Assembly: GCF_058153355.1 (NCBI RefSeq)
Contig: NZ_CM177019.1
Strand: one strand, 5' to 3'
Length of the DNA stretch: 64,000 bases
Positions 11,069 through 36,408 of this stretch are shown here, piece after piece. Positions within the stretch are counted from its first letter, which is position 1. Each line of letters starts with the position of its first letter. The position numbers and the translations under genes are program-made. Below the pieces are notes generated by a model that searched no databases, was not told the origin of the DNA, and saw only the letters and a program-made list of their open reading frames with translations.

Positions 11069-11123
11069 ATTCATTTCGCAAATGTGCTGACATTTTCCCC
11101 TCTAATCATTACAATTTAAATTT

Positions 11124-11723
11124 ATGAATTATGCATTGATAATCGCTATTATAATATCGTTCCCCTGTGCATTATTATCAGTTTTTCTGGTATTAAAAGA
11201 CTGGGCGCTAATAGGAGATGCAATGAACCACGCAATGTTTCCTGGCATAGTTCTAGCCTGGATTATAGGTATGCCGCTGGGAATTGGTGCATTTATTGTA
11301 GGACTGTCTTGTGCAATTGCAACTGGCTATCTGAAAGATAATAGCATCATAAAGAAAGATACCATTATAGGTATCGTTTTTTCAGGAATTTTTGTCTTGA
11401 CTATCAACAGGCACAAGTCAGCGGATTACAGATATCATTATTACATTACGGTTTACTCTGCATGGTATCGCCTACCATTTTTGCCACATTAAAAGCAGTC
11501 GGAATTATTCTGTCTATATACTATTAATAGCTCCAGGGTCTATTGCTGTCCTCATCACGCATCGCTTTCATAAGACATTACTTATCGCCGTAACGATATC
11601 AATAACAATATCAGGCGTATGGTTATTATATTTTCTCGACAGAGCCCCAGCGCCGACAATCGTCCTCTTATTTGCTGTAGCATTTCTTTTCGCGCTTATA
11701 ATAATCAATTTTCGGAAACAATA
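11124..11723 (+). pseudogene. degraded ABC-3 (ZnuB/MntB-like) permease remnant; frameshifted and internally shortened
   Basis: N-terminal frame gives ...ALIGDAMNHAMFPGIVLAWIIGMPLGIGAFIVGL... (like ZnuB GDTLAHASLLGVAFGLL); a second frame gives the permease C-terminus LIAPGSIAVLITHRFHKTLLIAVTISITISGVWLLYFLDRAPAPTIVLLFAVAFLFALII; total under 200 codons, AT-rich. Confidence 0.5.
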
Positions 11724-12003
11724 ATCTCAACAGTAGAATAAAGAGGCAAATCAATCATTACATATATAAGATGGTGCTAATATTGCACCGCCTTTAAATT
11801 GAACTTTATCCTTTCACCCTTACACAATTTAAGGAATGCAGATGACTATTTTATCAGCACCCAGCCTTTTTCCTGGTAATCGAAAACTTGAAAATCATTA
11901 ACTCTAAGAAATTCTGCCAAATCGTTGAAATTACTTTAAATTAGACTCGAACAAATCAACCCCTGATGGGGCTTTTACTTATCCATTTAATCGGGTATAT
12001 ATC

Positions 12004-12053
12004 GACCTCCATCTGCCCGCCTCAGATTCGTACCTGGTGGAGGTCTTTTTTCG
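12004..12053 (+). terminator. hairpin plus T-run in AT-rich island
   Basis: gacctcca...tggaggtc inverted repeat followed by ttttttcg. Confidence 0.35.
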
Positions 12054-12112
12054 TTACCTCTTTCCCCCTTTAGTTCAGTATAAAATCATCAAACTAATGC
12101 TGTTCACACTAT

Positions 12113-12292
12113 TTACCTCCAGCATTCTATATAAATAATAGAAATAAAAACCCCAATACATAGTGCATTGGCATGACCAAACATCAATGCCATTATACTC
12201 GCCTCTGTTAAATACTCGCTAGTTAATATGATAGGCACGCATGATATAACAATCCATATGCTAATACATAAATACACCAGTATTTTTCTCAT
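12113..12292 (-). CDS. hypothetical 59-aa hydrophobic small protein (candidate only)
   Basis: ATG preceded by AGGGA SD at 6-nt spacing; translation MRKILVYLCISIWIVISCVPIILTSEYLTEASIMALMFGHANALCIGVFISIIYIECWR with two hydrophobic stretches; lies in AT-rich DNA where chance ORFs are common. Confidence 0.2.
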   Translation of the reverse strand: MRKILVYLCISIWIVISCVPIILTSEYLTEASIMALMFGHANALCIGVFISIIYIECWR

Positions 12293-13049
12293 AGTCAGTC
12301 CCTGTGATTAACAATCAAGGCATAGTTAAGCATATTTCACATTCAAACGTAAACATTATTAATAACATTATGTCAATCGAACTGACATCACGATTCAAGC
12401 CCTCTTCAGACTGAAGGCTAGAGCAGCGTAGAACATTTCAAAACAATACACTGAAAAAATACTTGAACAAAAAACTTAATTCTTTTTTATTGTGAACTTT
12501 AGTAATTTTGTCATGCAACTCTTTATTACATTTAGGCCTATCTTATTTCATGGCAACGCAAATACAGGACCATTTCTTGTGCTATGGATAAGTAATAAGC
12601 TAGTTACATCTTATTAAGAGAACCATTTTCACATATCAAAATATCATCACCACCCACAATGAATTAAGTATTTTTCTTATTCTTTAGATTAGATACGTAA
12701 TGAATCCCTAACTCCATTCGGGTGTCATGGCTCTTTCATTTGAAATACATTCATATCCAATGTAATATTTCTATGCGCAAATATAACTACCGACCATACT
12801 CATCATTTATTACAGAGAATTATTTTATTCACCGAAAAGTTTCACAAAATATCCCCTGATAGAAAACTAAAAAACACTGCATAATATCGCTATTCTGGCA
12901 CTTGCGAAAAATTATATTCTGCACCTGTTGTAGCGTTCTATTTCTCCGCCTGGCAACGAATGCACAATGTCCGCCACAGTTTCTGTTCTAATTTCTTCCT
13001 GTGTTACCGCATCCTGTACGGGTAGCGCAACACCAGCATGCTAAGCAAG

Positions 13050-13309
13050 GCTTTCCCATCAGATTTCACTACGACTATTTGGGAGCGAGATGGAATGCAG
13101 CAGTAAAACGTGCTGGTATTCGCCGCCGTAATCCGTACCATACGCGACATACTTTTGCCTGCTGGCTGTTGACGGCAGGAGCGAACCCGGCATTTATAGC
13201 CAGCCAGATGGGGCATGAAACTGCGCAGATGGTGTATGAAATTTACGGTATGTGGATTGATGACATGAACGACGAACAGGTAGCTATGTTGAATGCGCGG
13301 TTATCGTAG
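13050..13309 (+). pseudogene. 5'-truncated tyrosine-recombinase (phage integrase) 3' fragment
   Basis: translation ...RRRNPYHTRHTFACWLLTAGANPAFIASQMGHETAQMVYEIYGMWIDDMNDEQ... carries the integrase C-terminal H-x-x-R/HT box and the catalytic Tyr region; no N-terminal domain; abuts ttcA 5' end where intR lies in K-12. Confidence 0.6.
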
Positions 13310-13360
13310 TTGCAAAGTTTGCCCCCAATTTGCCCCATTTAGTACCAGAGAACTGAAATA

Positions 13361-14296
13361 ATGCAAGAAAATCAAAAGAATACGAAGAAAGAGATATACA
13401 ATCTGAACAAATTACAAAAACGTCTGCGTCGTAACGTGGGCGAAGCCATTGCTGACTTCAATATGATTGAAGAAGGCGATCGCATCATGGTTTGCCTCTC
13501 CGGGGGTAAAGACAGCTATACCATGCTGGAGATTCTGCGCAATTTGCAGCAAAGCGCGCCAATCAATTTTTCGCTGGTGGCTGTTAACCTCGATCAAAAG
13601 CAACCGGGCTTCCCGGAACACGTTCTGCCCGAGTATCTTGAAAAGCTGGGCATTGAGTACAAGATTGTGGAAGAGAACACTTACGGTATCGTGAAAGAGA
13701 AGATTCCGGAGGGCAAAACCACTTGCTCACTGTGTTCTCGTCTTCGTCGCGGAATTCTTTACCGTACCGCAACGGAACTGGGAGCGACGAAGATCGCGCT
13801 GGGTCACCATCGTGACGATATCCTGCAAACGTTGTTCTTAAATATGTTCTACGGCGGCAAGATGAAAGGTATGCCTCCGAAACTGATGAGCGATGATGGC
13901 AAACATATTGTGATTCGTCCGCTGGCCTACTGCCGCGAGAAAGATATTCAGCGCTTTGCCGATGCAAAAGCGTTCCCGATTATTCCTTGCAACCTGTGCG
14001 GTTCACAGCCTAACCTGCAACGTCAGGTGATTGCTGACATGTTGCGTGACTGGGATAAACGTTATCCGGGGCGTATCGAGACGATGTTCAGCGCGATGCA
14101 GAATGTGGTGCCGTCGCATCTGTGCGATACCAACCTGTTCGATTTCAAAGGCATTACCCACGGTTCTGAAGTGGTTAACGGGGGTGATCTGGCGTTTGAT
14201 CGCGAAGAGATCCCTCTACAACCGGCGGGTTGGCAGCCTGAAGAAGATGAAAATCAGTTGGATGAGTTACGACTGAATGTGGTGGAAGTGAAATAA
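13361..14296 (+). CDS. ttcA: tRNA 2-thiocytidine(32) synthetase TtcA (311 aa)
   Basis: PP-loop ATPase motif CLSGGKDS plus CSLCSR/CNLC cysteine pairs. Confidence 0.9.
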
Positions 14297-26686: not shown

Positions 26687-27637
26687 ATGGCTATGTATCA
26701 GAACATGCTCGTTGTTATCGATCCTAACCAGGACGACCAACCAGCATTGCGGCGAGCTGTTTATTTACATCAACGGATTGGTGGCAAAATTAAAGCCTTT
26801 TTGCCGATCTATGACTTCTCATACGAAATGACCACCCTGCTCTCCCCGGACGAACGTACCGCTATGCGTCAGGGCGTCATCAGCCAGCGAACAGCCTGGA
26901 TCCACGAGCAGGCAAAATATTATCTCAATGCTGGCGTTCCCATTGAAATTAAAGTGGTCTGGCATAACCGTCCATTCGAAGCCATCATTCAGGAAGTGAT
27001 CAGCGGCGGACACGATTTGGTGCTAAAAATGGCGCACCAACATGACCGTCTGGAAGCGGTGATTTTTACGCCAACGGACTGGCATCTGTTACGCAAATGC
27101 CCAAGCCCGGTGTGGATGGTGAAAGACCAGCCGTGGCCGGAAGGGGGTAAGGCGCTGGTGGCGGTGAATCTCGCCAGTGAAGAGCCGTACCATAATGCGC
27201 TCAATGAAAAACTGGTTAAAGAGACGATCGAACTGGCGGAACAAGTCAACCATACCGAAGTTCATCTGGTTGGCGCTTATCCGGTAACGCCAATTAATAT
27301 CGCGATTGAACTGCCGGAATTTGACCCGAGCGTTTATAACGATGCCATTCGTGGGCAACATTTGCTGGCAATGAAAGCCCTACGGCAGAAATTCGGCATT
27401 AATGAAAACATGACGCACGTAGAAAAAGGTCTACCAGAAGAGGTGATTCCTGATTTGGCGGAGCACTTACAGGCGGGGATTGTGGTTCTGGGTACGGTCG
27501 GACGCACCGGTATTTCAGCAGCATTCCTCGGCAACACGGCGGAACAGGTGATTGATCATCTTCGCTGCGACCTGCTGGTCATTAAACCTGACCAGTATCA
27601 AACACCCGTTGAACTGGATGACGAAGAAGACGATTAA
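26687..27637 (+). CDS. uspE: tandem-domain universal stress protein UspE (316 aa from MAMYQNML)
   Basis: two Usp domains; acidic C-terminus ...VELDDEEDD. Confidence 0.9.
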
Positions 27638-27658
27638 TGACTCTTCAATAACTGACAA

Positions 27659-27685
27659 GGCCCGATTTATCGGGCCTATTTTTTT
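27659..27685 (+). terminator. rho-independent terminator of uspE
   Basis: ggcccgat-tt-atcgggcc followed by tattttttt. Confidence 0.75.
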
Positions 27686-27687
27686 AA

Positions 27688-27945
27688 TTACTGCTCCTCG
27701 CCGCCAAGGAAATAAATTCCCAACGGGATTGCCAGCAACACAGTAAAGACCAGGCTATAAACAAAAATCATTGATGACTGAATCACATACATTGATGTCG
27801 TCCACTCAGACAGCGGAATATTGTACTGTTCTATCACGCCGCCGATGGTCGCGCGAGTCACAACCGACGCCGCAATAATGAAAACCGCCAACAAACCAAA
27901 GAGAAATTTCTTCCCTTTCGCTGACTTCAGTTTCGCCATAATCAT
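27688..27945 (-). CDS. ynaJ: DUF2534 inner-membrane protein YnaJ (85 aa)
   Basis: 85-aa ORF with two TM helices; convergent with uspE as in K-12. Confidence 0.75.
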   Translation of the reverse strand: MIMAKLKSAKGKKFLFGLLAVFIIAASVVTRATIGGVIEQYNIPLSEWTTSMYVIQSSMIFVYSLVFTVLLAIPLGIYFLGGEEQ

Positions 27946-28042
27946 GATGTAATCCTTGTGCAGACAAATTTCTTGTTACCTAACCGTAACAATACCATGA
28001 CATTTCACCGTTGTCTGCTCTGAAAACCTCACCTCTTAGCTG

Positions 28043-29468
28043 TAATGCCAGTCAGTTAAGCAACTGACTGGCTCTTTTTCGGGGCTGTGGGGTATTTCCA
28101 GGGCCTCTCCTTTACCACTCTCGGGAAGGCCCTTTCCCTTCTTGTCGGTAATTTCACAAGTTGTCCCATACTTGCAAGATCGCGCATCAGCTCCGGTATA
28201 CGTCCCGGTGAAGCGCCCTGCAATGTCATCAGCATTCTCATCACCATTCCGCATGATTCTGAGAAACTCAGTTGATTCGGCCAGTAACCTTTCAGATGTT
28301 CCGCCATTTTAATCATCTGATATCTCACCAGATTATAAGCCAGTAAGACACCCCACAGCTCTTGCTCCACAAGCTCCGGCTTTTTACTTCTCAGCGTCAG
28401 CCTGCTCAGTTGCATCGTCTGTTTTATCTCCCTGTATCCCAGTTCGATTTCCCAGCGATGACTGTACAGATCCGCCATTTCTCCTCCGGGGAAGCGCATG
28501 GCGTCCGTCATCGACGTCAGCAGATGGCAGACTTTTCCTTTGCGCGTCACGGTCAGCAGGCGGGCTGTCACTTCATTTCCCAGTCCCGGCCACTTTTTTC
28601 GTGCCTGCGGGCTGGTTTTCAGCTTCACCAGATGATCGCCTTTACCCAGTTTTCTGATCTCTTCATATTGCGCTCCCTTTCTGAGAGGTATCATCCAGTG
28701 GCGGTGTTCTCCCGCCAGGCTCCAGGCATTTAACAGTCCCAGTGAGTAATAACCTTTATCCATTAACGTCAGAGTGTTATCGCCGGTTTGTTCTATAAGT
28801 TGCTCAGCAAGCTCATTTTCGCTGTTCTTCATCGTGCCGAAGGCTGCAGCCGTCAGCAGATGGCTGGTCAGTTCCATCTGGCAGACCATTTTGACCTGCG
28901 GGTAGAGCGCCGGGTTCCCGGCATGTGTCTGGCGGGGGAAGGCTGCATCGTTCTCTGGTGTATCCGGTGTGCGCCAGAACACACCATCGATGGCCAGCAG
29001 GGTCAGGCCGCACCAGTGCGGATGCGGCGTGGCGTTATGCCAGAGCTGCGCTGTTTTCGTGAACACGCGGCGGACAGCCTCACTTCCCAGGCGCTGGCGG
29101 GCCTGAATAACGGCACTGGGGGCAACGAAGGGGCGATTGCCCGGCAGCATGATGTCCAGGCGATTCACAATCTGGTGAAGAGGTTCTTTACGCTCAAGCG
29201 CCATGCCAACAATACACCAGACCATCATTTCGAGGGGAAGACGGCGCTTGCGTAGCGTTACAGTACCTGATTCGGCAAGGCAACGAGAGATGAGTTCGGG
29301 GTCGAGGTAATCCCCCAGAGAAGTCAGTGGGTTACGCAGAGAATCGTAACGGGATACCAGATCAAGAGCCTGTCCAATGTGCATAAAAAAATCCGGAAAC
29401 AAGTGAGCGTTTCCGGATTCTTACACAGCCACTGGATCGGTCAACTGATCCTTAACTGATCGGCATTA
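28043..29468 (-). mobile_element. IS4 insertion sequence, 1426 bp, intact
   Basis: terminal inverted repeats TAATGCCAGTCAGTTAAG... (28043) and ...CTTAACTGATCGGCATTA (29468); identical 13-bp direct repeats CACCTCTTAGCTG at 28030..28042 and 29469..29481; single transposase ORF. Confidence 0.9.
28056..29384 (-). CDS. insG: IS4 transposase (InsG-like, 442 aa from [10 protein letters not shown])
   Basis: translation matches recalled IS4 transposase ([77 protein letters not shown]...). Confidence 0.9.
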
Positions 29469-29627
29469 CACCTCTTAGCTGGATTTACAATCAACGCATT
29501 GATTAGTTAGCTAATGTTGCTACTTCCTTCCCTGACTATTGATGATCTGAATGAATTGTCGCGGTAAAATAGCCCCGCCAGGGGTTTCCGGCATGACGAC
29601 AATTATCTGGAGGAGCCTGATAAAACA

Positions 29628-30659
29628 ATGATCGCTGAACTGTTTACAAATAATGCGCTTAATCTGGTCATTATTTTCGGTAGCTGCGCAGCATTGATTC
29701 TGATGAGCTTTTGGTTTCGCCGCGGAAATCGTAAAAGAAAAGGATTTTTATTCCATGCGGTGCAATTTTTAATCTACACCATAATTATCAGTGCTGTTGG
29801 TAGCATCATTAATTATGTTATAGAAAACTATAAACTCAAATTTATCACCCCAGGCGTTATCGATTTTATCTGTACGTCCCTGATTGCGGTTATTCTGACG
29901 ATTAAGTTATTTCTGCTGATTAATCAGTTTGAAAAACAGCAGATTAAAAAAGGTCGTGATATCACCAGTGCGCGGATTATGTCGCGTATCATCAAAATCA
30001 CCATTATTGTGGTACTTGTTTTGCTTTATGGCGAACATTTCGGCATGAGCCTTTCTGGCTTGCTGACCTTTGGTGGTATTGGTGGTCTGGCTGTCGGTAT
30101 GGCCGGTAAAGATATTTTGAGTAACTTCTTTTCCGGGATTATGCTCTATTTCGACCGTCCTTTTAGTATTGGCGACTGGATCCGTTCACCGGACAGAAAT
30201 ATCGAAGGTACAGTAGCGGAAATTGGCTGGCGAATTACCAAAATTACGACCTTTGATAATCGTCCGTTATACGTCCCGAACTCGCTGTTTTCGTCTATCA
30301 GCGTAGAAAACCCGGGGCGAATGACCAACCGACGTATTACCACGACAATCGGTTTACGTTATGAGGATGCGGCAAAAGTGGGAGCCATTGTCGAAGCCGT
30401 ACGTGAGATGCTTAAAAATCACCCAGCCATCGACCAGCGACAAACCTTACTGGTTTATTTCAACCAGTTTGCTGACTCGTCATTGAATATTATGGTTTAT
30501 TGCTTTACCAAAACCACAGTATGGGCTGAATGGCTTGCCGCCCAGCAGGATGTTTATTTGAAGATTATCGATATTGTACAGTCACACGGCGCGGATTTCG
30601 CGTTCCCAAGCCAGACGCTGTATATGGATAACATTACACCACCAGACCAGGGTCGTTAA
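29628..30659 (+). CDS. ynaI: MscS-family mechanosensitive channel YnaI (343 aa)
   Basis: N-terminal TM helices followed by MscS beta-domain ([26 protein letters not shown]). Confidence 0.85.
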
Positions 30660-32374: not shown

Positions 32375-32411
32375 GAAATGCAAACAACTTCCATCAAAAA
32401 AGTGACAAAGG
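32375..32411 (+). repeat. copy A of a ~35-bp repeated intergenic element (mppA upstream)
   Basis: GAAATGCAAACAACTTCCATCAAAAAAGTGACAAAGG; near-identical copy at 36371..36408. Confidence 0.6.
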
Positions 32412-32654
32412 AAGCATCAAATGTTTTAAGTATCAATATATCAAATCAGATTTAGTGTAAATAATAGTCTCCAAAATGCGGTAAAGCACATAGAACTCCG
32501 AACACTACGTTCGGGCTTCGCACGTTCAAACCCGTTTTCGGTATCATAATCAGCATCTGTCGCCATTGTACGAAGAATAAAAAATAACCAAAACGTTGAA
32601 AGGAACTGAGAATACGTTAAGAGAAGAATTAAATTAATGTATCAGCAAGTAGTG

Positions 32655-33554
32655 CTAAACAGCACCTTTATACTTCAGCCTATCTATAAATAATGAGAAT
32701 GCCGAGCCAGCATGTCGACGGTGTGGATAGTACAGGTGATAACCGGGTAAATCTGGTGTGAATTTATCCAAAACACGTATCAGTTTTTTTTCTTTAATAG
32801 CCCGCTCAACCTGATCATAAGGTAGATACGCCAATCCATGCCCATCAATTGCAGCATCAATGATCAGGTCTATCGTATTCAGTAAAAGCTGACCTTCCAT
32901 GCGAACACGAACTTCACGTCCACCGCGTATTAATCTCCAGCGATTTGCTGTACCCGATGTGGGAAGATACAAATTAATTGCCTGATGATCTATTAATTGT
33001 GACACTGACGTTGGAGCACTTCGACGAGAAAAATAATCCGGTGAGCCAACAATAGCCATTGGTATATCTGGCCCGATTCGAATGGCGATCATATCTTTAT
33101 CCATCTCCCCACCCAGACGGACGCCTGCATCAAAACGTTCAGAAACGACATCGGTCAAACCATAATCAATGGTAAGCTGGATATCAATTTCAGGATGCGA
33201 TTTCAGGAATGTGCGCATAGCTGGTAACAATATCGTTTTTGCTGCATGTTCTACAGTAGTAATACGTATTGTCCCGGATGGGCGGTTCTGCAGATCGCTC
33301 AGGGATGTCAGGGCAGAATCTATGTCATGCAACATAGGGCCAAGAACAGACAAAAGATGCTCGCCCGCTTCAGTGGGTACAACGCTGCGCGTGGTTCGCG
33401 TCAGAAGCCGCAATCCCAATCGTTCTTCTATACGGCGCACTATCTGGCTTAAAGCTGACTGCGCCATGCTCAGGCGGGCTGCTGCGCGAGTGAAGCTACG
33501 CTCCTCTGCAACGACGACAAACGCCATCAGATCAGCGATTTCTTCACGCTTCAT
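32655..33554 (-). CDS. pgrR: LysR-type regulator PgrR/YcjZ (299 aa)
   Basis: N-terminal LysR HTH (LMAFVVVAEERSFTRAAARLSMAQSALSQIVRRIEE); divergent from ycjY. Confidence 0.8.
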   Translation of the reverse strand: MKREEIADLMAFVVVAEERSFTRAAARLSMAQSALSQIVRRIEERLGLRLLTRTTRSVVPTEAGEHLLSVLGPMLHDIDSALTSLSDLQNRPSGTIRITTVEHAAKTILLPAMRTFLKSHPEIDIQLTIDYGLTDVVSERFDAGVRLGGEMDKDMIAIRIGPDIPMAIVGSPDYFSRRSAPTSVSQLIDHQAINLYLPTSGTANRWRLIRGGREVRVRMEGQLLLNTIDLIIDAAIDGHGLAYLPYDQVERAIKEKKLIRVLDKFTPDLPGYHLYYPHRRHAGSAFSLFIDRLKYKGAV

Positions 33555-33578
33555 TCAGTATCTCCATACAATCTATTA

Positions 33579-33621
33579 ATCATTTAAATGATAGGTCTAA
33601 TCATAATTTAGGGTCTAATCA
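33579..33621. promoter_or_regulatory. putative LysR-type operator in pgrR-ycjY divergent region
   Basis: perfect palindrome ATCATTTAAATGAT (T-N11-A type) followed by direct repeats GGTCTAATCA x2. Confidence 0.35.
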
Positions 33622-33679
33622 ACTTAATGATCAATATCTATAGTGATATCACCAACCGTCAAAACGAACCGACAACTCC

Positions 33680-34612
33680 ATGAGGAACGGAATGATGAAT
33701 AATAAAGTCAGCTTCACTAACAGCAATAATCCAACCATCTCTTTGTCTGCAGTGATCTATTTCCCTCCAAAATTTGATGAAACCCGTCAGTATCCGGCAA
33801 TTGTGGTATCTCACCCAGGTGGGGGCGTTAAAGAGCAAACGGCCGGAACCTATGCCGAAAAACTGGCGGAAAAGGGATTTGTCACTATTGCTTATGACGC
33901 ATCTTATCAAGGTGAAAGCGGCGGCGAGCCGCGTCAGTTAGAAAACCCATACATTCGTACTGAAGACGTCAGTGCCGTGATTGATTACCTGACAACGCTT
34001 TCTTATGTCGACAATACCCGAATTGGTGCGATGGGAATTTGTGCCGGTGCAGGATATACAGCCAATGCTGCAATTCAGGATCGCCGCATCAAGGCCATCG
34101 CTACCGTTAGTGCGGTCAATATTGGTTCGATGTTCCGTAATGGTTGGGAAAACAATGTGAAATCTATTGATGCCCTACCATACGTTGACGCGGGTTCAAA
34201 CGCCCGAACCAGCGATATTAGCAGCGGAGAATACGCCACTATGCCACTGGCACCAATGAAGGAGTCCGATGCGCCGAACGAAGAACTGCGTCAGGCCTGG
34301 GAGTATTACCACACCCCTCGCGCGCAGTATCCAACAGCACCGGGTTACGCTACTTTGCGCAGCCTTAACCAGATTATTACCTATGATGCTTACCATATGG
34401 CGGAAGTGTACCTGACTCAGCCGATACAGATTGTGGCGGGCAGCCAGGCAGGGAGCAAATGGATGAGTGACGACCTGTACGATCGAGCATCAAGCCAGGA
34501 TAAACGCTATCACATTGTTGAAGGCGCAAACCATATGGATCTTTATGACGGCAAAGTCTATGTGGCTGAATCAATTTCAGTATTAGCTCCGTTCTTTGAG
34601 GAAACTCTGTAA
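33680..34612 (+). CDS. ycjY: alpha/beta-hydrolase family protein YcjY (310 aa as ORF)
   Basis: hydrolase-fold protein; context matches ycjY; true start may be the internal MMNNK. Confidence 0.75.
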   Translation: MRNGMMNNKVSFTNSNNPTISLSAVIYFPPKFDETRQYPAIVVSHPGGGVKEQTAGTYAEKLAEKGFVTIAYDASYQGESGGEPRQLENPYIRTEDVSAVIDYLTTLSYVDNTRIGAMGICAGAGYTANAAIQDRRIKAIATVSAVNIGSMFRNGWENNVKSIDALPYVDAGSNARTSDISSGEYATMPLAPMKESDAPNEELRQAWEYYHTPRAQYPTAPGYATLRSLNQIITYDAYHMAEVYLTQPIQIVAGSQAGSKWMSDDLYDRASSQDKRYHIVEGANHMDLYDGKVYVAESISVLAPFFEETL

Positions 34613-35551
34613 TGAAACATATTCAAATCCGTAATAGTGATATGGCCTGGCATATTGCTGCCAATATTCAGTTTCCACCAAATTTTGATGAGTCAAAACA
34701 GTATCCGGCGATTATCAGCGTCCATCCTTTTGGCAGTTGTAAGGAGCAGACGTCTGGCAATATCTATGGCAAGGCATTGGCTGAAAAAGGCTATGTCGTT
34801 CTCGCTTATGACGCCAGTTTCCAGGGAGAATCTGGTGGGGAGCCTCGTTGGATAGAAGATCCGACACAGCGCGTAGAGGATATTAGCCGTGTTATCGATT
34901 ATGCAGTAACTCTGCCATATGTTGATGCTGAACGCATTGGCGTGCTGGGTGTGTGTGTGGGGGGGGGGGGGTGGCTATGCCATTAATGCCGCGCTGACAG
35001 AAAAACGAATTAAAGCTGTAGTGAGTATTACGGGTGTTAATATCGGGCGTCTTTTTCGGGAAGGTTTCAGCAATTACGATCCGATTGGCGCATTGAATGC
35101 AATGGCGTCGCAACGAACCAAAGAGGCTCGTGGTGGAGAATTACAGATCAACGAATTACTTCCCGCCAGCCTGGATGCAGCAAAAGCCCATGGACTGACC
35201 GAACGCGATGTTTATGAAGCAACTGACTACTATAAAACACCACGCGGGCAACAACCGGGAGGTGCGACAAAAATGTTGTTCTCACATGCACAGAAAACGC
35301 TGGCCTGGGATGCCTTCGCATTTACTGAAGTGTTACTGACTCAGCCGGTGATGGTAGTAGTTGGTGAAAAAGTCGGTGCCTTCGGTGCTTATCGTGATGG
35401 ACTGGAAGTCTATGGCCGGGCGATGGTTTCGCAGGATCGTCAGTTAGTTTCGTTACCCGATTTCTCACATTATGAACTGTATGACAAACCGGAAGCAGTT
35501 CAGGAGGCGCTGGAAAAAGTTATTCCTTTTTTCAACACCCATCTGGGATAA
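34612..35551 (+). pseudogene. ycjY-paralogous alpha/beta hydrolase, frameshifted at a (GT)4-G12 tract
   Basis: ORFs 34612..34986 and 34919..35551 are collinear with YcjY residue-by-residue (DAERIGVLGVCVGGG | YAINAALTEKRIKAVVSITGVNIG... versus YcjY DNTRIGAMGICAGAGYTANAAIQDRRIKAIATVSAVNIG); reading frame switches inside gtgtgtgtg + 12 G (34951..34971). Confidence 0.7.
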
Positions 35552-35556
35552 GTTTC

Positions 35557-36207
35557 ATGAGAAATATTATGAAAAAAGTACTCATTCTTGGTGCTGGCGG
35601 TCAGATAGCCCGCCATGTGATTAATCAACTGGCAGATAAACAAACCATTAAACAAACTTTATTTGCTCGTCAGCCAGCAAAAATACACAAACCCTATCCA
35701 ACTAATAGCCAGATTATTATGGGGGATGTACTGAATCATGCAGCACTGAAGCAGGCCATGCAGGGACAGGATATTGTGTATGCCAACCTTACGGGGGAAG
35801 ATTTAGATATTCAGGCAAATTCAGTGATCGCTGCGATGAAAGCCTGTGATGTTAAACGTCTGATCTTTGTTCTTTCCCTCGGCATTTATGATGAAGTTCC
35901 AGGAAAATTTGGCGAATGGAATAATGCAGTTATTGGTGAGCCCCTAAAACCATTCCGCAGGGCTGCGGATGCAATTGAGGCTTCTGGACTGGAATATACA
36001 ATTCTTCGCCCTGCCTGGCTGACTGATGAAGATATTATTGATTATGAGCTTACCTCACGCAATGAACCATTCAAAGGTACGATCGTATCACGTAAGAGTG
36101 TCGCAGCATTAATCACAGATATCATCGATAAACCTGAGAAACACATTGGTGAGAATATAGGCATCAATCAACCCGGGACTGATGGTGATAAGCCCTTCTT
36201 CATGTAA
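35557..36207 (+). CDS. NAD(P)H-binding NmrA/SDR-like protein (216 aa)
   Basis: N-terminal Rossmann motif VLILGAGGQIARHV; I recall only a fragment (ymjC) at this position in K-12. Confidence 0.7.
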   Translation: MRNIMKKVLILGAGGQIARHVINQLADKQTIKQTLFARQPAKIHKPYPTNSQIIMGDVLNHAALKQAMQGQDIVYANLTGEDLDIQANSVIAAMKACDVKRLIFVLSLGIYDEVPGKFGEWNNAVIGEPLKPFRRAADAIEASGLEYTILRPAWLTDEDIIDYELTSRNEPFKGTIVSRKSVAALITDIIDKPEKHIGENIGINQPGTDGDKPFFM

Positions 36208-36370
36208 ATCAATTATATAGCTACCATCGTACTGTACTATGTGCAGTACGATTTATTAAACTTATTAAGGTGAACTGATCAATCAGATGCGATTAACATG
36301 TGTAGAACCAGTAAGAATAAAATACGCCATGTATATAACATTACGACAATTCTAATATCTGCACATCAAT

Positions 36371-36408
36371 GAAAATACAAACAACTTCCGGCAAAAAAGT
36401 GATACAAG
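36371..36408 (+). repeat. copy B of the ~35-bp repeated intergenic element (mpaA upstream)
   Basis: GAAAATACAAACAACTTCCGGCAAAAAAGTGATACAAG; about 90% identical to 32375..32411. Confidence 0.6.

Follow-up and report, generated by a model that had tools for sequence, protein, structure and literature searches.

The ynaJ-ynaI locus and its insertion

We analyzed a stretch of 64,000 nucleotides from contig NZ_CM177019.1 (NCBI RefSeq assembly GCF_058153355.1), hereafter the window, in which an insertion sequence (IS) lies between two divergent genes. On one side is ynaJ (27688..27945, minus strand, ATG at 27945), encoding a protein of 85 aa that matches DUF2534 (E 4.5e-41); on the other is ynaI (29628..30659, plus strand, ATG at 29628), encoding an MscS-family low-conductance mechanosensitive channel of 343 aa. 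The latter protein has the MscS-type TM2/3, beta and C-terminal domains (PF21088, PF00924, PF21082). The orthologues of both genes in Escherichia coli R32_14_1F are 100% identical and carry the RefSeq names ynaJ and ynaI; the pair is flanked there by uspE and fnr on one side and by mppA on the opposite one. A preliminary description of this DNA, made from the sequence alone, had named the right neighbour as the channel YnaI, and both the domains and the orthologue agree with that name. Characterisation of the YnaI channel has made use of K-12 derivatives, Frag1 among them (PMC3508906). Between the element and the two start codons lie 97 bp on the ynaJ side and 159 bp on the ynaI side, matching the initial estimates of about 100 and about 160 bp, and the ynaJ-ynaI spacer itself measures 243 bp with 42% GC.

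The element occupies positions 28043-29468 and is a complete IS4 of 1426 bp in minus-strand orientation, with its transposase pointing leftwards to ynaJ, the gene with which it is co-oriented. The transposase gene, of the insG type (29384..28056, minus strand), is an uninterrupted ORF of 442 aa from its ATG, without internal stop. Length, ends and translation all agree with the intact element first described, and the disruption of the transposase ORF that the same description had named as a point to check was not found. An alternative start, a TTG at 29402 located six codons upstream, would give a protein of 448 aa and appears both in the mechanical list of open reading frames and in the PGAP annotation of identical copies; the K-12 annotation of the IS4 transposase begins at the ATG. 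The element ends in imperfect terminal inverted repeats of 18 bp, TAATGCCAGTCAGTTAAG at the transposase 3' end (28043..28060) and TAATGCCGATCAGTTAAG at its 5' end (29451..29468), which match at 16 of 18 positions and are the same as those of the K-12 copy.

The translated protein matches the Pfam families Nterm_IS4 (PF13006, 3e-33) and DDE_Tnp_1 (PF01609, 8.7e-32), and scores 304.5 bits against the NCBIfam model transpos_IS4_1 (NF033592; cutoff 115). Its catalytic residues are D133, D209 and E314, separated by spacers of 75 and 104 residues, the two aspartates having been placed by their motif context (LLAIDG and TLMDKG). A Y(2)R(3)E(6)K motif starts at residue 307 (Y307-R310-E314-K321). The hallmarks of the IS4 family are a D(60-110)D(100-150)E triad and the Y(2)R(3)E(6)K motif (PMC2266710). 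The window element, with a single ORF, an N-terminal domain, a DDE_Tnp_1 domain and both spacings, therefore belongs to this family, and the copy appears, from its sequence, to be functional, for which the identity of its protein to that of the widespread allele and the low-rate movement of IS4 in K-12 lines give indirect support.

Both junctions carry the same 13-mer, CACCTCTTAGCTG, at 28030..28042 on the left and, as an exact repeat, at 29469..29481 on the right, so the perfect 13-bp direct repeats of the preliminary description are real. The chance of a 13-bp match between two fixed positions is about 4^-13. An example of the IS4 junction sequence at this locus is AAACCTCACCTCTTAGCTGTAATGCCAGTCAGTT.

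Relationship to other IS4 copies

We searched for the element in a collection of 5426 complete E. coli genomes. The best 25 matches were all 99.9% identical to the window copy, one base off, and none among them was a 100% match. Twelve copies were then compared base by base, namely eleven fetched from these best 25 matches and the K-12 copy. In 10 of the 11 fetched copies the sole difference was IS position 338 (28380 in the window); in the remaining one, the copy of strain SCU-387, which occupies the K-12 site, it was position 530. The base at 28380, read on the minus strand, is synonymous (K335 is encoded by AAG, not AAA) and separates the window copy from 11 of the 12 compared. The commonest E. 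coli allele of IS4 and the window copy are thus one synonymous base apart. The IS4 of K-12 MG1655 (4502090-4503515) is of equal length and aligns with 1423 of 1426 bases identical; two of the three differing bases change residues adjoining the YREK motif, and there it is K-12 that is the odd one. The element is thus IS4 itself, intact: an already-known element in a new but unremarkable place.

The empty site and the rarity of the insertion

To reconstruct the uninterrupted locus we joined both flanks through a single copy of the 13-mer, obtaining a 397-bp query that we searched against the 5426 genomes. The locus was present in 5422 of them and uninterrupted in 5056 of these 5422 (93%). The best match to the empty site came from R32_14_1F (goat), with 100% identity over both flanks. 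A second query, of 2972 bp, covered the occupied locus; in empty genomes its flanks span 1533 bp, that is, 2972 - 1426 - 13. By direct inspection, CACCTCTTAGCTG occurs once, in the same context, in both R32_14_1F and K-12. The expectation that the empty site would hold one copy of the 13-mer was thus borne out, the 1533-bp span fitting as well.

IS4 was found in the ynaJ-ynaI spacer, in either orientation, in none of the 5426 complete E. coli genomes at a coverage of the occupied locus of at least 80%. An exact search for the 34-mer of the left junction did not find it among the contigs of a one-genome-per-species collection or of JGI metagenomes. The element as such is common, being carried by 2686 of the 5426 genomes with a median of one copy and a maximum of 24, which is consistent with the reported carriage of 50-69% (PMC7373316). 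It moves at a low rate: of 758 new insertions recorded in mutation-accumulation lines of K-12, 8 were of IS4 (PMC5009759). A context of 25 kb around the IS shares only 97-98% identity with the matches ranked highest on the product of coverage and identity, indicating that the source genome is without a close relative in the collection; individual blocks of the window are 97.7% to 99.5% identical to R32_14_1F.

As far as can be seen among the genomes compared, the insertion is private to the lineage of the window. Given the perfect duplication, the absence from all compared genomes and the single synonymous base, it is plausible that the insertion is recent. Its junction is a unique lineage marker, of little value beyond strain typing. 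IS4 has expanded in Shigella and enteroinvasive E. coli (PMC7373316), and we considered whether the source could be of that kind; however, a comparison with R32_14_1F over 54.6 kb of the window showed one IS only, unlike a Shigella-like IS density.

Target-site preference of IS4

From the eleven further IS4 copies and the K-12 copy we reconstructed ten distinct sites, from which a target rule was derived. The target duplications were 11-14 bp long, with one apparent case of 14, and, counted from the centre of the duplication, every site had an A-tract near positions -10 to -12 and a T-tract near +10 to +12. The inner gap from A-tract to T-tract was 15-20 bp, most often 18. IS4 target duplications range from 11 to 13 bp in the literature on this element from 1979-81. 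A target consensus AAA-N20-TTT was reportedly given by Mayaux et al. in 1984, and the A and T arms of the ten sites agree with it. They likewise agree with the remark that the left and right target arms show striking specificity (PMC2266710), and in the family at large the duplication measures about one helical turn (De Palmenaer et al., PMC2266710).

The window site has the same design: AAAA-cct-[CACCTCTTAGCTG]-ga-TTT, with an inner gap of 18. The A-tract (AAAA, 28023..28026) lies 3 bp to the left of the duplication, at about -10 to -13 as in nine other targets, and the T-tract (TTT, 29484..29486) lies 2 bp to its right. The 243-bp spacer contains a single AAA-N17-21-TTT, and IS4 is centred in that very site, from which we infer that the location was set by the target preference of IS4 and not by a hotspot. 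The motif is loose, with 135 starts across the 64-kb window, so it accounts for the position within the spacer and not for the choice of the spacer. The uspE/ynaJ terminator (27658-27677), 350 bp away, was considered as a more typical IS4 target and rejected as such, since it is without the left A-tract.

Several of the targets in the feaB-tynA, tdk-adhE, raiA-bamD, ycaL-aroA and yihL-typA spacers look, by eye, like inverted repeats that would form terminator-like hairpins, with an A-run, a GC stem-loop and a T-run. The ynaJ-ynaI target showed no stable fold (-2.2 kcal/mol, z 0.27), and the site of the K-12 resident copy has no obvious inverted repeat by eye. Since the window site has the arms and yet is unfolded, and since the K-12 resident site is without an obvious inverted repeat, the comparison suggests that IS4 may recognise the A and T arms rather than a hairpin. 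The ynaJ-ynaI site is in this sense an extra data point for the IS4 target rule.

Candidate transcription signals in and around the element

A terminator scan reported a plus-strand hairpin at 28047..28072, consisting of an 11-bp stem followed by TCTTTTTC (-21.1 kcal/mol, z -3.7). Sharing sequence with both the inverted repeat and the stop codon of the transposase, it would act in a terminator-like manner on transcription entering IS4 from the ynaJ side. On the minus strand this hairpin has no U-run, so that some read-through from the transposase gene to ynaJ is conceivable. At the opposite end, directly 5' of the transposase ATG, a strong minus-strand hairpin (29422..29387) is followed by U7 (-22 kcal/mol, z -5.25, with 0 of 200 shuffles as stable), and resembles a terminator for transcripts that come in from the ynaI side. 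Inside the same IS end lies a candidate transposase promoter (29444..29417, minus strand), identified by consensus match only: TTGACC-16-AAGAAT, with a TG before the -10. The -10 hexamer coincides with the first six bases of the 5' arm of the hairpin, so transcripts from the element's own promoter would lack the arm and outside transcripts would form the terminator. Protection against outside transcription is known for other IS elements.

In the flanks, a sigma-70 scan found no promoter above threshold, and the region held two sites against a shuffle mean of 2.7; promoter-like sites being no commoner than in shuffles, our statements on promoters are weak ones. Inspection by eye picked out a candidate extended -10 promoter in the 97 bp upstream of ynaJ, one that scored too low for the scan to report. 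On the ynaI side, 159 bp are kept in the window, compared with 121 bp beside the IS5 of K-12. An Rfam scan of 27400-29900 (E <= 1) did not find any RNA family, and hence no known sRNA or leader is disrupted. The preliminary description had proposed that IS4 could insulate or re-drive either promoter, a proposal that we regard as speculation. If the insertion did alter the expression of ynaI or ynaJ, it would offer a natural experiment, if a small one, on two genes that are poorly understood.

IS5 in the same spacer of K-12

In MG1655, IS5F is located at 1396044-1397238, between ynaI and ynaJ, in agreement with the preliminary description, which placed an IS5 at this locus in K-12; it is listed as the ynaI/ynaJ copy of K-12 (PMC11677980). 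Read in the orientation of the window, the K-12 sequence runs from a single IS4 13-mer through 25 bp to TTAG, IS5 and TTAG again. The tetranucleotide that IS5 duplicates there is intact in the window (TTAG, 29507..29510), 25 bp from the IS4 duplication. The target rule of IS5 is YTAR (PMC5009759).

Within the 397-bp site, 366 of the 5422 genomes are interrupted. The K-12-type IS5 arrangement accounts for 351 of them and IS4 for none, which leaves at most about 15 (0.3%) for anything else, and among the interrupted matches listed the K-12-type break alone was seen. Two IS5-bearing examples that we examined, ER1709 and J53, are K-12 derivatives, and there are strains with 100%-identical flanks without IS5 in the spacer. 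On these two of the 351 genomes, we take the IS5 insertion to have happened once, within the lineage of K-12. Frag1-like K-12 derivatives presumably carry the same IS5 in the ynaI-ynaJ spacer.

The suggestion that the locus is a recurrent insertion target is therefore true in a weak sense: IS5 and IS4 did insert 25 bp apart, but each followed its own target rule and 93% of genomes are uninterrupted. Because the elements are unrelated, have their own rules and meet a spacer that is mostly intact, two such insertions do not make a hotspot. That K-12 tolerates IS5 at a nearly identical place argues that the spacer is permissive to insertion.

Origin and likely significance of the insertion

Very probably, a complete and apparently functional IS4 transposed here by its own target preference and is now a neutral or nearly neutral passenger. 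The identity and intactness of the element, its target duplication, the empty site, the rarity of the allele and the fit to the target rule were all observed. The neutrality of the insertion is an assumption, most likely a correct one, and the route of transposition is drawn from what is known of the chemistry of DDE transposases in the IS4 family. In the lineage of the source strain, a complete IS4 would have entered the 243-bp ynaJ-ynaI spacer, the insertion point being chosen through an A-tract and a T-tract placed symmetrically some 10-12 bp about the centre. The DDE transposase would have made staggered cuts 13 bp apart, whose repair would have produced the 13-bp duplication. The two genes would thereby have been pushed 1.44 kb apart with the upstream regions of 97 bp and 159 bp left untouched, and the inward-facing terminator-like hairpins at both ends of IS4 would block outside transcription from crossing the element.

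An alternative is that the insertion is an adaptive regulatory mutation, retained because IS4 insulates ynaJ or ynaI from shared upstream regulatory sites or drives ynaJ by read-through. The element does lie in the control region of two divergent genes, whose start codons are 97 bp and 159 bp away, the transposase and ynaJ are co-oriented, the missing minus-strand U-run makes read-through conceivable, and a second, independent IS entered 25 bp away in K-12. However, an insertion present in 0 of 5426 other genomes gives no sign of spread or recurrence, the spacer is intact in 93% of them, and the target rule of IS4 fully accounts for the position. Moreover, the candidate (sub-threshold) extended -10 promoter is retained upstream of ynaJ, and the 159 bp left beside ynaI exceed the 121 bp that K-12 keeps beside IS5. 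The spacer could also be a hotspot for IS elements in general, such as a region of transposon capture that is AT-rich and bound by H-NS, with IS4 and IS5 as two samples of a high local rate of insertion. One study reportedly described H-NS-bound regions as transposon capture sites, which we counted in favour of this explanation, as we did the AT-rich composition (42% GC) and the presence of two different IS within 25 bp in independent lineages. Yet once the K-12-type IS5 is set aside, at most about 15 genomes (0.3%) are left for every other kind of interruption, and with more than 5400 genomes searched, a spacer hit twice is unremarkable given the non-coding bias of insertion. IS insertions generally favour non-coding DNA (PMC5009759). 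Considering that the allele is unique and the spacer elsewhere empty, we judge these two explanations improbable, and equally so.

One could further propose that insertions in the ynaJ-ynaI control region, IS5 in K-12 and IS4 here, have been repeatedly selected, and that the IS4 transcript reads into ynaJ. If this were true, uncoupling or re-driving ynaJ or ynaI would be advantageous under some condition; we give it slightly less credence than either explanation above. Finally, the assembly could have misplaced IS4 at a locus that is uninterrupted in the source strain. Assemblies often go wrong at IS elements, and the allele is absent from all other public sequence searched; but a misjoin would not yield an exact 13-bp duplication of a sequence that is single copy in empty genomes, nor would it centre IS4 on the one fitting target of the spacer, and the synonymous base at 28380 distinguishes the window copy from 11 of the 12 compared. 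The exact duplication and the centring on the one fitting site make misassembly very unlikely, the least credible of all the explanations considered. The preferred reading thus remains that of a passenger placed by the target preference of IS4.

Comparison with known insertions

The resident IS4 of K-12 (insG, b4278) resembles the window copy in its layout, with 13 bp between the stop codon and one end and 84 bp between the ATG and the other, and in its target, since both have a duplication of about one helical turn and A-tract and T-tract arms. It differs in its location, the yjgZ-nanX spacer, in the length of the duplication, 12 bp there and 13 bp in the window, and in its protein, which has G304 and R326 where the window copy and WP_000483766.1 have A304 and L326.

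The IS5F of K-12 shares with the window insertion the 243-bp ynaI-ynaJ spacer, an intact IS and a perfect target duplication. In contrast, it belongs to the unrelated IS5 family, is 1195 bp long and is flanked by a 4-bp duplication, TTAG.

Closer in sequence are the copies of the common E. coli allele (WP_000483766.1), whose transposase protein is identical to that of the window copy. These occupy, among others, the feaB-tynA, tdk-adhE, raiA-bamD, ycaL-aroA and yihL-typA spacers, with duplications of 11-14 bp and A/T arms. Their sites are mostly intergenic, one of ten lying inside ygeA. Unlike these sites, which are convergent or tandem in arrangement, the window IS4 is located between divergent genes.

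Ancestry of the sequence around the insertion

We compared 25 kb of the window (16001-41000) with complete E. coli genomes. When the matches were ordered by the product of coverage and identity, those at the top were only 97.3-97.8% identical to this stretch. The 1533 bp of ynaJ-ynaI flanking sequence were 100% identical to one goat isolate (R32_14_1F, the comparison genome with the best match to the empty insertion site), and the blocks neighbouring these flanks were 98.6-99.5% identical to the same isolate. The interval 16001-41000 is a recombination mosaic, derived from a lineage that the 5426 complete genomes do not include. The 397-bp chromosomal ynaJ-ynaI site, reconstructed from the flanks and a single copy of the 13-mer, matched 5775 places, six of them on records labelled as plasmids.

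Two blocks of the window were missing from R32_14_1F. The larger (~4 kb, 32406-36372), in the mppA-mpaA interval, is also present in K-12. It encodes a LysR-type regulator and an alpha/beta hydrolase that resemble pgrR and ycjY, respectively, together with an NAD(P)-binding protein. A second hydrolase paralogue in this block is split into two ORFs that overlap (34612-34986 and 34919-35551) and has the appearance of a pseudogene that arose by frameshift. The smaller block (2.26 kb, 11108-13367), in the uspF-ttcA interval, had no counterpart in R32_14_1F when the two sequences were compared. Within it, an ABC-3 metal permease is represented by its first ~94 residues (11124-11492; PF00950), and a phage-type integrase by a C-terminal fragment (13001-13309; PF00589) whose end lies ~50 bp ahead of the ttcA start. 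This block appears to be the degraded terminus of an element integrated at the ttcA site, which is the location of Rac in K-12.

Target duplications of other IS4 copies

The genome of SCU-172 had IS4 at 18 places. Its kup-side copy (locus L012, 1501-2926) lacked a target duplication and adjoins a truncated GntR-type gene, which suggests that DNA was rearranged or deleted between copies of IS4. At the copy between raiA and bamD (locus L009), the duplication is apparently 14 bp long and its two repeats differ at one position, consistent with an older insertion.

Start codon and alleles of the IS4 transposase

PGAP starts the IS4 transposase at a TTG codon, giving a protein of 448 aa (window 29384-29402; 1514-2860 in L004-L015, the loci of the other IS4 copies compared). 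This TTG lies within a stem-loop upstream of the transposase ATG. The K-12 annotation begins at the ATG and gives 442 aa. The transposase of the IS4 copy of K-12 MG1655 (IS4 at locus L003, 4091-5516), a strain in which IS4 activity is low, was also set apart by two residues, A304G and L326R (window 28408 and 28474), which flank the YREK motif, Y(2)R(3)E(6)K, that starts at residue 307. At both residues the window allele agrees with 11 other genomes examined, whereas K-12 differs.
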